A stretch of 64,000 bases of DNA, taken from assembly GCA_041660885.1 (NCBI GenBank), contig JBAZVM010000008.1, positions 7,537 to 71,536 on the forward strand, given 5' to 3'. The stretch comes from Patescibacteria group bacterium (GTDB taxonomy: Bacteria > Patescibacteriota > Patescibacteriia > UBA9570 > JAHJKD01). Shown piece after piece: positions 5,083 through 10,404 of this stretch (position 1 is its first letter; each line of letters begins with the position of its first letter). The notes under the pieces are model-generated. The model was not told the origin of the DNA, did not search any database, and was given only the letters and a program-made list of their open reading frames with translations. The position numbers and the translations under genes are program-made.

Positions 5083-5157
5083 TGGAGCGGGATACGGGAA
5101 TCGAACCCGTCTCTCATCCTTGGGAAGGATGCATAATAGCCACTATACTAATCCCGC
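5083..5157 (-). tRNA. tRNA-Gly (anticodon CCC), CCA encoded
   Basis: The reverse complement GCGGGAT..CATCC-TTCCCAA-GGATG..ACGGG-TTCGATT-CCCGT-ATCCCGC-T-CCA folds as a cloverleaf. It has a 7-bp acceptor stem, a 5-bp anticodon stem, a 7-nt loop with CCC at positions 34-36, and a T-loop TTCGATT. Confidence 0.85.
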
Positions 5158-5162
5158 AAACA

Positions 5163-6368
5163 TTACTTATTCCCCCAAATCGCGTCTAATATCTTCACTC
5201 TGGTTACTAATAAAGAAGGAATAATGCCGGCTAACATGGAAACCCAGACGAATATTTCCAATCTCATTATATAATCGGCGTATTCCAGCACCAAAGTAAC
5301 ATCGCCAATGGGCAAAGAAAAGGGGTAAGCTTTAAAATAAGTTACTATCAAACCAAAGAAAATGGCCGTGCCGATAGCTATGCCGGAAAGAGAATAAACA
5401 ACGGTTTGCAAAATATAAGTGGCGTTAATTAAATACGGGCGCACGCCAATGGCGCGCAATATGCCCACTTGCTGGCGTTTGCTGGTTACGTCAATGTAAA
5501 TCACGATAAAAATGGTTACGGCCGCGATTAATATGCCCACAATAGACATGATAACGTTAATGCTCACAAAGCTTTTCGTGATGGCCTTCATGATGCCGGC
5601 CGCTTCTTCCCAGCCGTAAAACTTACCTTTTATGTTCTTTGCTTTGATTTCTTCAATGACTTTTGCTTCTTCTCCGGTTTTGCTGATTTTCATGATAAAG
5701 CTGGTGGCTGTATTTTCGCTACCGGGGAACATTTCATTGAATGCTTTATTGGTGATGAAGGCTCTTTTATCCGTTTCTAAAAATTTGGTATAAAAAATTC
5801 CTTTAATGGTAAATTCCTTGCTTTGGCTGTCGAAGCTTAGAGTGACTTTGTCTCCCACTTTCGCGTCTTGAAAAGAGAAGGCGTTCATTTCCACTTCTTC
5901 TCCGCCCGCTATTTGCCGGCCGATTATTATCTGATCAGTGTCATCCGGGCTTAAATATTCCCCTTCAGTCATGTTATCGTAGATGTTTGTCACCCCTTTT
6001 TCTAATTCCGGATCAACTGCTAAAATAGTCCAGTTGCCCTTCACGTTCTTATACTTCATGCTGGCGGGAACGATTATTTGCGGACTGACCGCTTCAATTT
6101 TATCGATGCTTTCCAAATCGGTTTTTATCTGGCTCGTTTCCTTGAAAAAATCTTCCCCGTCCGGCGGAAGCATCATGATATTGCCGGTAAAAGTATTAAC
6201 TACTTGCTTATTGGTATTACTGATAACGCCGGCGAATAAAGAATTCACGAAAATCAAATTGATAAACGCAATGGACATTAAAAAAATAATCAAGGACAAA
6301 GTCCACTTATTGCCTCTTTTCAAATGGCACCAAAGCAGAAAAAAAGGAATTTTAAATTCTTGCTTCAT
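5163..6368 (-). CDS. ABC transporter permease, FtsX/MacB-LolE type
   Basis: 401 aa. An N-terminal TM, a large extracytoplasmic domain, then 3 C-terminal TMs with the FtsX-type motif (RQQVGILRAIGV). Overlaps the upstream ATPase gene by 4 nt. Confidence 0.8.
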   Translation of the reverse strand: MKQEFKIPFFLLWCHLKRGNKWTLSLIIFLMSIAFINLIFVNSLFAGVISNTNKQVVNTFTGNIMMLPPDGEDFFKETSQIKTDLESIDKIEAVSPQIIVPASMKYKNVKGNWTILAVDPELEKGVTNIYDNMTEGEYLSPDDTDQIIIGRQIAGGEEVEMNAFSFQDAKVGDKVTLSFDSQSKEFTIKGIFYTKFLETDKRAFITNKAFNEMFPGSENTATSFIMKISKTGEEAKVIEEIKAKNIKGKFYGWEEAAGIMKAITKSFVSINVIMSIVGILIAAVTIFIVIYIDVTSKRQQVGILRAIGVRPYLINATYILQTVVYSLSGIAIGTAIFFGLIVTYFKAYPFSLPIGDVTLVLEYADYIMRLEIFVWVSMLAGIIPSLLVTRVKILDAIWGNK

Positions 6369-7036
6369 ATTATTTTTCCATCGGCTAAATGAATGATACG
6401 ATTGGCGAATACCTCTTCTTCCGGTTCGTGGGTGACCATGACAATCGTATGATTATCGTGTTTATTTAATTCTTTTAGAATTTTCATAACAGAATTGGCG
6501 GCCTGGGTATCCAAATTGGCCGTGGGCTCGTCCGCGAAAATCACTTTAGGATCGTTGATCAAAGCGCGGGCAATGGCCACTTTCTGTTTTTCTCCGCCGG
6601 AAAGCTGGTTCGGTAAACTTTTTATTCTTCTCTCCATTCCGACTTTAGATAATAAACGATGCGCTCTTTTTTCGCATTCTATTTTTTTATTAAGAAGCAT
6701 GGCGGGAAGCATGACATTTTCCAAAGCGGTTAGTTCGGAAAGCAAAGCGTATTCCTGAAAAATATAGCCAATTTTTGTTAAACGCATTTTCGCTCTTAAT
6801 TTTTCTTTCATCTGAATAACTTCCTCGTCTAATAAATGTATGGTTCCGGAATCGGGTTTATCCAATAAACCTAATTGCCTGAGCAAGGTGGATTTGCCGG
6901 AGCCGTTGCGTCCTTTAATAATTAAAAAATCTCCTTCGTGCAAATCGAAAGAAACCCCCTTTAAAGCGTGTACTTTTACATGCCCGCTTTCGTAAAATTT
7001 ATGAATATTGTGAACGGATACTATTTTATTCGGCAT
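6365..7036 (-). CDS. ABC transporter ATP-binding protein (MacB/LolD-like)
   Basis: Walker [11 protein letters not shown]-loop, signature [15 protein letters not shown], Walker [10 protein letters not shown]-loop VTHE. The start is moved to ATG 7034-7036 ([11 protein letters not shown]...) because the longer ORF (to 7099) runs through tRNA-Pro. Confidence 0.9.
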
Positions 7037-7050
7037 ATTACTTATGAATT

Positions 7051-7127
7051 TGGTCGGGGTAGAGAGACTCGAACTCTCGACCTCATGCACCCCATGCATG
7101 CGCGCTAGCCAACTGCGCTATACCCCG
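7051..7127 (-). tRNA. tRNA-Pro (anticodon GGG), CCA encoded
   Basis: Reverse complement CGGGGTA-TA-GCGC-AGTTGGCTA-GCGC-G-CATGC-ATGGGGT-GCATG-AGGTC-GAGAG-TTCGAGT-CTCTC-TACCCCG-A-CCA. This is a perfect cloverleaf of 77 nt with anticodon GGG. Confidence 0.88.
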
Positions 7128-7169
7128 GCAAAGCCTATTTTAGATAATTTATATGAGAAAAGCAAACTG

Positions 7170-7560
7170 TTAAGTGAAATGTGACCGCCGACCGCACGAA
7201 CGCGATTTGAAATCGAGTCCGCGCAGCCGACGGTGTCCCTTCAGATACGGTGCCAGCGGCTGATGCCGTCGGCACTTCGACGAAGGGTGAAGGTCCAGAC
7301 CAAGCCAGTAGCAAGGTCCTTTCCCTCGTAGAAACTGCGACCGCCCACGCACCAAAACCGAAGGACCAGAATCCCTACCATGATCCACCCCCTGACAAAA
7401 ACAAAAAGGCTTCTTACCCCAATAATAGTTCGGATAAAAAGCCTTCTTGCTTTTGCCCACTTGCGCGAGCCGTATCGTTCCCTTAGGGTAGGTTTTGCCA
7501 CCTTATCCAAAAGACAGGTTGGCGAGCAGTCATCGGGCCTAATCCCTCGTGCTTCTCTTG
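7170..7560 (-). ncRNA. Unclassified structured RNA candidate (strand uncertain)
   Basis: About 390 nt, visibly GC-richer than the surroundings and covered only by four mutually overlapping low-complexity ORFs on both strands. Complementary segments: 7182-7193 (TGAC-CGCCGACC) with 7517-7532 (GGTTGGCG-agca-GTCA); 7227-7233 CCGACGG with 7266-7272 CCGTCGG; 7315-7321 GGTCCTT with 7361-7367 AAGGACC; 7406-7412 AAGGCTT with 7439-7445 AAGCCTT. A GCTATAAT -10 motif on the minus strand at 7605-7612 and co-orientation with tRNA-Pro favour the minus strand. Confidence 0.45.
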
Positions 7561-7604
7561 ATAGTTTTAATTCTTAAAGAGCTATAAAAAGATACTAACA
7601 ATAA

Positions 7605-7612
7605 ATTATAGC
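7605..7612 (-). promoter_or_regulatory. Candidate -10 element (GCTATAAT) upstream of the GC-rich RNA region
   Basis: The minus strand reads cGCTATAATttat, overlapping the stop codon of the 7606-8148 gene. The same 8-mer precedes four other transcription units in this window. Confidence 0.35.
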
Positions 7613-8148
7613 GCCGTCAAATTTTTACGATCAATATTATAAAATCCCCACTCGCTCCAGCGCCAAATGGCTTGATATTTTGGTTTGCACTTATATTTTT
7701 TGGTGTATTCTCCTTCTAATACCACCAACTCGTTCTTACCATCATTATCTATGTCCTTTATTTCCGCGGAACAATTCGGTTTATTTAAATTAGAAGACTG
7801 CCAAACGGAATTTACCGTTTCCCCATCTAATTGATAAAGAAATAAATGATTCTTTATGGAATCATCATTCTTCCGCACCCAAAAAGGCTTGGACGAACCG
7901 TAATCGCCCGGTTTCCAAACCAATAAATTTATCTCGGTTTGGCCGTCGTTATTGCTGTCCGCCAAAATAAATTGGTCCACATGCCATTCTTTGGGCGTCT
8001 GCCATAAATGTTTATCGTTTTTCGTTATGGTGAAAATATTGTTTTGCAATGAATAACAAACGCCTGCCATACATTCAACGGTACGGACATGCCATGGCAT
8101 GTCCGTACGCGATAATAAAAAATACAACGCGATTAAAATTAATTCCAT
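7606..8148 (-). CDS. Small FG-GAP/VCBS-like repeat protein with an N-terminal hydrophobic anchor
   Basis: 180 aa. ADSNNDGQTEINLLVW and IKDIDNDGKNELVVLEG are FG-GAP/VCBS-type Ca-binding loop motifs. The ATG directly abuts the upstream TAA (TAAATG). Confidence 0.55.
   Translation of the reverse strand: MELILIALYFLLSRTDMPWHVRTVECMAGVCYSLQNNIFTITKNDKHLWQTPKEWHVDQFILADSNNDGQTEINLLVWKPGDYGSSKPFWVRKNDDSIKNHLFLYQLDGETVNSVWQSSNLNKPNCSAEIKDIDNDGKNELVVLEGEYTKKYKCKPKYQAIWRWSEWGFYNIDRKNLTAL
8081..8108. repeat. Perfect 28-nt GC-rich palindrome inside the CDS
   Basis: GTACGGACATGCCA|TGGCATGTCCGTAC. The two 14-nt arms are exact reverse complements. It encodes ..RTDMPWHVRT.. just after the hydrophobic N-terminus. 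Confidence 0.9.
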
Positions 8149-10404
8149 TTATTCATAAGCCATGAACGAATCGGTCCAGGTTGGCCTGTCTGGCGCTTCT
8201 TCCGAATCCATCAGTTCCCACCATTTGCTGTCGGTTAATCTGTCATCCATAGGCCAGCTGAATTCGTAATAAGAATAAACGCCTCCTTTTAATATTTTCA
8301 TCACGCCGTCTACGGGCATTACCACGTAAATATCGGAAATATATCCGGTAGCTTCTTCCTGCACGGAACCGTTCGGGTCCGTGGCGATATCGGAAACCAA
8401 AGCCGAAGGATTGGCGGAAAGGTAGCTATCTTCGCTCAGACCCTGCGCTTCCATCTCGTCTTGATTTATATCGAGCCAGAAATGTTCGATTTGCCCGCCA
8501 TAAGAACGAATCAACTCATATTCATCGTCCGTCAGAGTTTCATTGTTCAGTTCTTTCTCCGAGATGGTTTTTAATTGTAGAACCAGTTCCTGCAGGGTGG
8601 ATAAATTCTCCGAATAATCCGCGCTTAATAAATTTCTGGCTTCCAAGCCTTCTTTGGTCATGGCAAGCAAGCCGGCTAAACGGCTGTATACATAAACGTT
8701 AGGCTCCACATAACCGCGGTCGTCATCCGTGTAAGTGGGCTCTGGCCCGCCGCCCAATTCGGCGTAAACCTGTTTGGCGTATAAAATCGTATCGTGTTTT
8801 AATTCCGTGTAACTGCCCAGATAACTATTCAGGTCTTTCCTGACCCAAGCTTGATTTTGCATAAATTGCGGATAGCCTTCCCCTTTCTCCTGCGTGAGCG
8901 GTTGTAAGGAATACAGCCAGCCCCAGTATAAATTCTGCGTCCAAGTATCTGTATCTAAACCTTTTATATAAGTAGACATGTTATTCATATTTTCCGTATA
9001 ACATGCATAATCAGTTTCGCCCTGATCATCTAGAATACTTAAAGCTTCATCAGACCCCATGGCCGCGGTAACATCCAAAGCCTTGGGTAAATAGCGCGCT
9101 TGCGACGCGTTCCATTTTTCCACGCCGTCTTCACAAGTGGATTCTTTGTCTCCCACTTCGCGATAAATCAAACGCTGCATTACGGAAGCATCAATGGTAA
9201 AACGCTGGCCCATAAAGCGGAAGCCTTTTATCTCTTCTTCCCTGTTTGGCTGGATAGAGGCGTTATAAATCGGCATGGAATTAATTTGCGGAGGCTCTAA
9301 AGCCTGCATTTCCGTAATCACCTCATCCATTTTGGTTGTATCGCTAATTACTGTGTCTAAATTCGGAGATCCGCCATATACTTTCTTTAATATTTCTTCG
9401 GTCTGGTAATAAGTTATGTCATCGCTTTTCCCCACAAAAAAATTCGTGGGCTCGTATATTTTATCCCAGCTATCTTGATTATTGGCTTTATCCAAAGCCA
9501 TGGTTATTAAAACAGCGGATTTTGTTTCCTCATTTTCTTTCAAGCGAAAAGTCAGGCGGCCATACCACATCATGGTTTTAAAATATGCTTTAAGTTCTTC
9601 ACTTTTATCGTAATGGCCGCGCGGAATATATTGCGTGTAATCTTCCAACAGCTCGCTTCCCCCTCCTTCTATCCATAAAGGTGAAGCTTCAATGCCGGCA
9701 TGAGCATCTATCAGCATTAATTCCGAGTTCATTACATCGGCCACGTAAGACGGCACATCCGCGTTGCTATCCAATAATTTGCTGCCCACGCTGAAGAAAC
9801 CGACATTTCTTTTAGCGGCATTCTCCCATTCTGTATCGCGCAATTCTTCGTATTGAGCCATGGATTCCGCCAGCATTAAAGAGTTCAAATTCTCTAATTC
9901 GGGTATTAATTTATTTTCTTCCAGCTTTTTAAGAAGATCATCAAACATTAAATGATAATTGTGCACGATGGAATCTGTCGTTACGAAATTGGGAATTTTA
10001 TCGTACCGGTTTTCTTCGTAAATGGGAAAAAATTCCGAGCGATAACCAGGCAGCACTATAAAATTATTTTCGGACAACTTTTTTTCCGCGGCCGGAGTAA
10101 GCGTGAAGCGTTCTTTATTCACCACGTTGCTTAAGTTCGCCTCTACTTCATAGGCAGGCACTTGCGGATCAATATCCACTTCCACTTCTTTATACGCGGC
10201 GAATTGCGAAGCCTCGGCTTCTTGCGGCAGAATGCTTTCCGTAACTGTTTCCGTAACTGTTTCCGTTACGGTTTCCACGGTTTTTTCACCTTGGCTAAAA
10301 TAAAAAGCCACGGCCACGGCAGCTAAAATTATAAAGACGATAACTAAAGCCAAAACCACCAAGCCTATGATCAGGCCGATTTTTGCGCTCCCTTTATTTT
10401 TCAT
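8149..10404 (-). CDS. Large membrane-anchored protein, DUF3160-like
   Basis: 751 aa. An N-terminal TM, a (TVTE)n linker, then motifs I associate with DUF3160 (IPNFVTTDSIVHNYHLMFDDLLKKLEE, YIPRGHY, WYGRLTF). The family call is from memory only. Confidence 0.5.
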   Translation of the reverse strand: MKNKGSAKIGLIIGLVVLALVIVFIILAAVAVAFYFSQGEKTVETVTETVTETVTESILPQEAEASQFAAYKEVEVDIDPQVPAYEVEANLSNVVNKERFTLTPAAEKKLSENNFIVLPGYRSEFFPIYEENRYDKIPNFVTTDSIVHNYHLMFDDLLKKLEENKLIPELENLNSLMLAESMAQYEELRDTEWENAAKRNVGFFSVGSKLLDSNADVPSYVADVMNSELMLIDAHAGIEASPLWIEGGGSELLEDYTQYIPRGHYDKSEELKAYFKTMMWYGRLTFRLKENEETKSAVLITMALDKANNQDSWDKIYEPTNFFVGKSDDITYYQTEEILKKVYGGSPNLDTVISDTTKMDEVITEMQALEPPQINSMPIYNASIQPNREEEIKGFRFMGQRFTIDASVMQRLIYREVGDKESTCEDGVEKWNASQARYLPKALDVTAAMGSDEALSILDDQGETDYACYTENMNNMSTYIKGLDTDTWTQNLYWGWLYSLQPLTQEKGEGYPQFMQNQAWVRKDLNSYLGSYTELKHDTILYAKQVYAELGGGPEPTYTDDDRGYVEPNVYVYSRLAGLLAMTKEGLEARNLLSADYSENLSTLQELVLQLKTISEKELNNETLTDDEYELIRSYGGQIEHFWLDINQDEMEAQGLSEDSYLSANPSALVSDIATDPNGSVQEEATGYISDIYVVMPVDGVMKILKGGVYSYYEFSWPMDDRLTDSKWWELMDSEEAPDRPTWTDSFMAYE

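Follow-up and report, generated by a model that had tools for sequence, protein, structure and literature searches.

The locus lies in a 64-kb stretch of DNA, hereafter the window, from a Patescibacteria (CPR) MAG. Between genes, GC content exceeds 56% (in 200-nt windows) only at positions 7150-7423 of the window, where it peaks at 0.605 compared with 0.418 window-wide. The remaining GC-rich patches sit within giant ORFs (three in succession, of 1690, 3127 and 3389 aa, at 15915-40654 on the minus strand). A preliminary description of this DNA had set the region apart as GC-rich and non-coding, covered only by mutually overlapping Arg/Pro/Gly-rich frames, and both points hold: the ORFs there overlap one another on both strands and are rich in Arg, Gly, Pro and Trp. 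It had also regarded the region as a structured RNA rather than a protein-coding gene, in agreement with its folding. The minus-strand fold of 7400-7128 reaches -106.3 kcal/mol (z -3.8), compared with -71.2 kcal/mol (z -1.5) for the plus strand. Because only the minus strand folds much better than expected by chance, we assign the feature to this strand; the evidence on strand, described earlier as contradictory, falls entirely on the minus strand by folding. Four exact 7-mer inverted repeats lie no more than 60 nt apart, compared with 1.1 +/- 1.5 in shuffled sequences, a mild enrichment that is not decisive alone. The flagged region is genuine RNA-type sequence, but it is not a single unclassified RNA of 390 nt. 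It also extends past its flagged end at 7560, with an aptamer that reaches to 7567 and a promoter that reaches to 7620. The features are as follows:

7592-7620, minus strand: promoter of the riboswitch unit, TTGACG-N17-TAGTAT with TG ahead of the -10 (consensus scan)
7469-7567, minus strand: SAM-I (S-box) aptamer with helices P1-P4 (RF00162, full model 1-108, and RNAalifold on four loci)
7455-7470, minus strand: linker hairpin GCUCGC-GCAA-GUGGGC between P1 and the terminator (counterparts at the loci L084, L160 and L101)
7396-7454, minus strand: intrinsic terminator, a stem of ~26 bp followed by the U-run UUUUUGUUUUUG (fold and covariation)
7235-7395, minus strand: core of the read-through segment, or cargo, with a G-run and AUG (7394-7378), helix A, helix B and a 46-aa ORF (fold)
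7184-7234, minus strand: hairpin C, with stems of 18 and 5 bp (23 bp in all) separated by a 1x1 internal loop and capped by a 3-nt loop (fold)
7137-7165, minus strand: promoter of tRNA-Pro, TTGCTT-N17-TAAAAT (read from the sequence)
7051-7127, minus strand: tRNA-Pro(GGG) (ARAGORN, and RF00005 at 62.7 bits)

Two genes with the Pfam domains ABC_tran and FtsX follow downstream. The ABC ATPase gene starts with the ATG at 7039, only 12 nt past tRNA-Pro, so that tRNA and transporter probably share a transcript; a mechanically derived ORF of 244 aa (6365-7099) overlaps the tRNA and overshoots this start. The FtsX-type permease gene is immediately followed by tRNA-Gly(CCC) (5083-5157, minus strand), so that the ABC operon has a tRNA gene at either end, both on its own strand.

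When all 64 kb were compared with Rfam, the aptamer matched RF00162 with 51.0 bits, which exceeds the family's gathering score of 44.4 (E 8.8e-09 at this search size). The preliminary description had foreseen that a confident Rfam match would lower the novelty of the locus, and this is what the match does. The core elements AUCAAGAG, GAGGGA, GGCCC, AUGA, CAACC, GGUG and GAxxGAUA align to the RF00162 consensus, including the GA/UGA motif of the P2 kink-turn, and the single deviation in the core is GCCAACC where the consensus has GGCAACC. Compared with RF00162, P1 has just 4-5 bp, and single bases are inserted ahead of GAGGGA and in the P2 loop. RNAalifold on the window and the three related loci L084, L160 and L101 recovers P1, P2a, P2b, P3 and P4. 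Across the alignment of aptamer, linker and terminator, compensatory changes are found at seven base pairs, in the aptamer at the P2 pairs 20/48 and 22/46 and the P3 pair 59/108. By structural criteria, 7567-7469 is a member of RF00162, with SAM binding as a prediction from this membership, and we are practically certain that the segment down to 7396 is a SAM-I riboswitch with its terminator. The genomic context of methionine, cysteine or SAM genes is a contextual and not a structural criterion for SAM-I membership. In this respect the window differs from a typical SAM-I riboswitch, as no recognisable methionine or SAM gene lies downstream; there are only the GC-rich segment, tRNA-Pro and an ABC system of the MacB/FtsX type.

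The promoter upstream of the aptamer is of the sigma-70 type and accounts for the minus-strand -10 motif that had been noticed before: GCTATAAT is present at 7612-7605 on the minus strand and falls within the riboswitch promoter. An alternative, overlapping promoter can be read as TTGATC-18-TATAAT (7634-7605, minus strand). The -35 TTGACG and its spacing are kept in L084 and L160. Between P1 and the terminator, the window riboswitch carries a hairpin that is additional to RF00162. This linker hairpin is GNRA-capped and covarying, and hairpins of different sequence stand at the same location in L084, L160 and L101. The terminator folds with -40.3 kcal/mol (z -8.0); its 11-nt element GCUUUUUAUCC is invariant at all four loci while the stem covaries, and CAAAAGCAAGAAGGCTTTTTATCCGAA is an invariant stretch of 27 nt. 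One of the local pairings proposed earlier, 7406-7412/7439-7445, belongs to this stem. In a permissive Rfam scan, matches to miRNA families at 7390-7461 simply reflect the long terminator hairpin. As in RF00162 systems with a transcription-terminator platform, the window has a full-length match with a P1-P4 junction and an intrinsic terminator downstream, and both terminator and U-run are conserved. By contrast, duplex searches and truncated folds gave no conserved antiterminator pairing; the options that they offer are all non-conserved, for instance a window-specific pairing of GGAUAAGG with UUUUUAUCC.

L001-L003 and L097, present in JGI, ENA and Logan assemblies, match the window exactly and supply no variation. 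The sole syntenic relative is L084, in which the promoter, the riboswitch, a near-identical terminator, a GC-rich segment, a long hairpin and tRNA-Pro follow in the same order. The DUF3160 proteins of the two genomes are 83.5% identical, the FG-GAP proteins 74%, and the neighbouring proteins overall 74-84%. Riboswitch, linker and terminator are 86-89% identical in DNA, compared with 78.5% in the neighbouring genes and ~57% at their third codon positions, which argues that the riboswitch is under purifying selection. The preliminary description had asked for covariation and conservation in relatives; riboswitch, linker and terminator have both, at the three other loci, while in the cargo the terminal hairpin C is conserved in L084 and the core is not.

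The homologous riboswitches score 39.6 bits (L084), 46 bits (L160) and 55.3 bits (L101) against RF00162. L084 falls below the gathering score of 44.4 because a GC-rich hairpin of 41 nt is inserted in P3 of its aptamer (L084:4229-4270), and a riboswitch with such a P3 expansion would escape standard annotation. A relaxed aptamer pattern, applied in a metagenome scan, gave 70 loci. The GCCAACC variant is found in three of these 70 matches, and only the window's own contig, L101 and L160 combine it with a homologous terminator. In L160, this close homologue of the window riboswitch precedes metF (MTHFR) and metH, and in L101 it precedes a lone ORF of 76 aa. The L101 unit (L101:7781-8290) consists of the riboswitch, this one ORF (8004-8234) and a canonical terminator; a 76-aa protein of the ORF's 90%-identity cluster occurs on 27 contigs, and the L101 protein has no match in Pfam or NCBIfam and only a chance match (E=0.97) in a PDB search. 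The full arrangement was seen in two genomes, the window and L084, so that statements about the arrangement rest on two sequences. It is absent from L085-L092, L163 and L164, the inspected contigs with FG-GAP and ABC ATPase homologues, and blastn, nhmmer and a motif regex found no homologue of the riboswitch or the cargo at 80 GTDB loci that are syntenic via DUF3160.

The preliminary description had proposed either a single, large and new structured RNA (~390 nt) or a divergent version of a housekeeping RNA such as RNase P, tmRNA, SRP or 6S RNA. The high GC content, the many helices and the lack of a credible protein would suit such an RNA. However, 7567-7396 is the SAM-I riboswitch with its linker and terminator, and the helix proposed to close the large RNA (7182-7193 with 7517-7532) uses aptamer nucleotides. 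This helix amounts to an interrupted match, TGACCGCCGACC against TGACTGCTCGCCAACC, and we reject it because its right arm coincides with the P2/P3 strand of the aptamer. The local pairs 7227-7233/7266-7272, 7315-7321/7361-7367 and 7406-7412/7439-7445 are exact, as had been described; in the case of 7227-7233/7266-7272 the complementarity stands and the hairpin does not, as the pair joins two different predicted hairpins and lies outside the best fold. The earlier judgement that known housekeeping RNAs fit poorly is borne out by a permissive cmscan of 6900-7800 (E<=10), in which RNase P, SRP and 6S RNA gave no match and the sole tmRNA match (7.9 bits, at 7623-7699) lies outside the region; ARAGORN found no tmRNA. 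Altogether, we consider a single large RNA of either kind highly improbable.

What stays unclassified is only the distal ~210 nt (7395-7184, minus strand), the cargo of the riboswitch, with about 60% GC in a genome of 42% GC. Its core contains helix A, which is long and irregular and includes the pair 7315-7321/7361-7367, and helix B (7287-7237), and has no match in Rfam even at E<=10. The cores of the window and L084 both have about 58-60% GC and fold with z -2.2 and -4.1, respectively; the fold of the L101 ORF is no better than shuffles (z -0.6). The two cores align no better than shuffled sequence (z -0.16), and tblastx and tblastn find nothing in common between them. Hairpin C behaves differently. 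It folds with -37.5 kcal/mol (z -6.8), without a U-run after it, and L084 has a hairpin of matching geometry (stems of 17 and 5 bp on either side of a 1x1 loop; -37.4 kcal/mol, z -7.1). The two hairpins align with z 5.1; the base is conserved, and the upper stem is altered yet still paired. Thus, between these two sequences, only the terminal hairpin of the read-through segment is conserved and the core is not. Three other origins or roles of the cargo were considered. A relic of metF or of another gene was rejected, as there is no tblastx similarity; so was a repeat or mobile GC element, since the window contains the sequence only once and neither plasmids nor phages gave a match; and for pairing with tRNA-Pro, duplex energies are indistinguishable from those of shuffled sequences.

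The core contains a 46-aa ORF, MVGILVLRFWCVGGRSFYEGKDLATGLVWTFTLRRSADGISRWHRI, at 7381-7241 on the minus strand, and the riboswitch could accordingly govern a small protein that is translated at low SAM, with hairpin C as the terminator of its gene. Several observations point in this direction. An AUG follows a G-run straight after the terminator at the same place in the window and in L084, where the counterpart is an ORF of 52 aa at the equivalent position, and in both genomes the stop codon lies 5-8 nt ahead of hairpin C. Both peptides contain RSFY and, 10 residues on, a W, at equal distance from the stop. The L084 ORF has a significant codon-position periodicity (GC1/2/3 = 0.66/0.40/0.75, P=0.0005). 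Moreover, small ORFs stand behind SAM-I riboswitches elsewhere, such as the ORF that is the sole cargo of the homologous riboswitch in L101, those of the L093 group of loci and DVU1170 of Desulfovibrio, where a SAM-I riboswitch is co-transcribed with a hypothetical ORF of 189 nt (bioRxiv 10.1101/803072).

Against a small protein, the peptides of the window and L084 are dissimilar (BLASTP E=3, not significant), while the proteins encoded nearby share 74-84% identity. The window ORF lacks codon periodicity (P=0.49), its length can be reached by chance (P=0.065; about 5-6% of shuffles of these G-rich sequences contain such lengths), and all three frames are nearly free of stops because the sequence is G-rich; a peptide rich in W, R, G and V is the composition expected from translating a G-rich RNA. 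In the predicted fold, the AUG is paired within helix A. A Shine-Dalgarno-like motif lies upstream of only about 2 of the 37 genes of the window, in which starts are preceded by A/U-rich sequence. Gene callers made no call at the cargo in three full-length assemblies, and on the shorter L003 contig only a 28-aa minus-strand call at its end. The small cargo peptides match nothing in Pfam or NCBIfam, the L084 peptide has no homologue, and the 46-aa sequence is absent among 15 billion called proteins. A phmmer search of 1.84 billion representatives returned five matches to the 46-aa peptide, all of them tandem-repeat surface proteins of unrelated families in which ~23 bits per repeat are summed, and we judged these to be chance. 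AlphaFold models the peptide as a single helix (pLDDT 78), which is uninformative because the input is one short sequence. We do not think that the cargo is a conserved small protein, and regard a small protein of any kind as unlikely.

In the window, the missing periodicity, the chance-level length, the rarity of Shine-Dalgarno motifs, the paired AUG and the lack of a family or credible homologue favour a non-coding cargo; the evidence from L084 points the opposite way. Functional non-coding RNAs are normally expected to be conserved, and the core of the cargo has neither sequence nor obvious structural conservation compared with L084 despite the closeness of the two genomes, which counts against a functional non-coding RNA. 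We put the probability that the cargo is non-coding and ends at hairpin C at just short of even.

Hairpin C also bears on whether the riboswitch acts beyond it. Because hairpin C has no U-run, some read-through into tRNA-Pro and the ABC genes is possible, and the GC-rich segment could be a long structured leader through which SAM controls additional transcription of tRNA-Pro(GGG) and the ABC ATPase/FtsX genes on top of that from their own promoter. ABC transporters are among the classic targets of the S-box regulon. All elements have the same orientation, hairpin C lacks a U-run unlike the riboswitch terminator and the L101 terminator, and the downstream elements conserved between the window and L084 are hairpin C, the promoter of the tRNA and the beginning of tRNA-Pro, at which the L084 contig ends. 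By contrast, tRNA-Pro has its own conserved promoter, with counterparts in L084 (TTGCCA-N17-TAGAAT) and in L092, which has no riboswitch (TTGATT-N17-TATAAT). The orthologous ABC operons of L090, L092, L163 and L164 likewise have no riboswitch, the transporter is of the MacB/FtsX and not of the MetNIQ type, and a hairpin of -37 kcal/mol would strongly impede read-through or be a processing site. We regard a leader for these genes as unlikely. In two of the relatives without the riboswitch, L090 (3675-3794) and L164 (1613-1757 and 1779-1813), small Cys-rich, zinc-ribbon-like ORFs lie just upstream of the orthologous ABC ATPase/FtsX operon.

Finally, the lack of similarity between the two cores could mean that an orphan riboswitch is followed by functionless or recently inserted foreign GC-rich filler, in which case the product, if any, would be the terminated riboswitch RNA acting in trans, as is reported for SreA/SreB and DseA. 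The cores look non-homologous, as though one had been replaced, the codon usage of the L084 cargo looks foreign (GC3 0.75 compared with 0.50 in host genes), the sequence after an identical riboswitch terminator also varies between loci of the unrelated L093 group, and the riboswitch itself is under purifying selection. However, both lineages have kept high GC, strong folding and the geometry of hairpin C on an AT-rich genomic background, and this speaks for selection downstream of the terminator. No donor was found among plasmids or phages, and no trans target can be proposed. We consider filler of this type improbable.

Based on these data, we suggest a model in which the locus is a minus-strand unit headed by a SAM-I riboswitch and produces, under SAM control, a read-through RNA that is probably non-coding and ends at hairpin C. 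In this model, transcription would start a few bases past the -10 (7597-7592), and the four helices of the SAM aptamer (7567-7469) would form in the nascent RNA. At high SAM, the aptamer with its ligand would allow the 26-bp terminator (7454-7396) to form, and an RNA of ~190 nt would be released. When SAM is scarce, the polymerase would continue into the ~210-nt GC-rich segment (7395-7184) with its long helices and very stable 23-bp end hairpin, and hairpin C at the 3' end would mark or protect the end of the read-through RNA. tRNA-Pro and the ABC genes would be transcribed from a separate promoter. In other words, the riboswitch would work as an OFF switch, with SAM causing termination at ~7396 and low SAM read-through; this logic is drawn by analogy from S-box leaders. 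The data themselves establish the identity of the riboswitch, its terminator, the strand, and the conservation of riboswitch and hairpin C; that the cargo is non-coding, and where its 3' end lies, we infer. Taken as a whole, the model is the best explanation that we can offer, and we give it an even chance. For the read-through RNA, we rank a structured non-coding RNA first, followed by a small protein, a leader for tRNA-Pro and the ABC genes, and filler with a riboswitch acting in trans.

More speculatively, the transcript may be free-standing and have three parts, a conserved riboswitch head, a conserved hairpin tail of ~23 bp and fixed geometry and an interchangeable GC-rich body that was swapped for non-homologous sequence between two close relatives. 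The locus would then be either a cassette site with a riboswitch at its head or a structured regulatory RNA, gated by SAM and placed immediately before tRNA-Pro(GGG), a tRNA that needs SAM-dependent m1G37 methylation by TrmD for reading-frame maintenance. We regard this as a doubtful proposal.

In some bacteria, riboswitches control non-coding RNAs. For instance, an AdoCbl riboswitch is joined to EutX/Rli55 in Enterococcus and Listeria, and SreA/SreB are SAM riboswitch sRNAs of Listeria. The model for the window resembles these systems in that the ligand would decide whether a short RNA ends at the terminator or read-through yields a longer, structured RNA without a credible gene. EutX/Rli55 have a defined protein-binding motif, the ANTAR dual hairpin, and a known partner; by contrast, no ANTAR-like motif, partner or conservation was seen at the cargo of the window.

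The closest parallel with a small ORF is DseA-DVU1170 of Desulfovibrio vulgaris, where a SAM-I riboswitch stands before a monocistronic small hypothetical ORF and the terminated riboswitch also acts as a trans sRNA (bioRxiv 10.1101/803072). Similarly, in the window a SAM-I riboswitch and terminator are followed by a short unit with only a small unannotated ORF, and the short terminated RNA could be abundant. However, DVU1170 homologues remain linked to the riboswitch across Desulfovibrio species, whereas the window ORF is neither conserved nor endowed with a coding signal, periodicity being found in the L084 ORF alone; nor can a trans target be proposed for the window riboswitch.

Because the apparent new large RNA contains a known riboswitch, it should not be listed as a new class of RNA; the locus is a SAM-I riboswitch in an unusual context. 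These findings document a subfamily of SAM-I riboswitches in Patescibacteria that is characterised by its linker hairpin and terminator, and in which a P3 expansion takes one member below the Rfam threshold. The target of a strongly conserved SAM switch without a methionine gene would bear on SAM sensing in symbionts with reduced genomes, and on how commonly small ORFs or non-coding RNAs are under riboswitch control.

In the L093 group, which belongs to a non-CPR lineage with a GC content of about 0.52, L093 (4523-5100), L106, L134, L140, L149 and L151 were compared with L125, L135 and L099. These loci have a near-identical SAM-I riboswitch and terminator, and their cargos diverge right after ...TTTGG(T)GGGG. 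At some of the loci, a 54-aa ORF (MTDQSKEQKPEVKNWLDKLLE...) and roughly 300-400 nt of additional sequence follow; others lead directly into a 74-aa ORF (MERPDCPGRFPDSW...), and L099 has an ORF of 125 aa. The indel that separates the two forms is apparently flanked by GTGGG(G/A) repeats.
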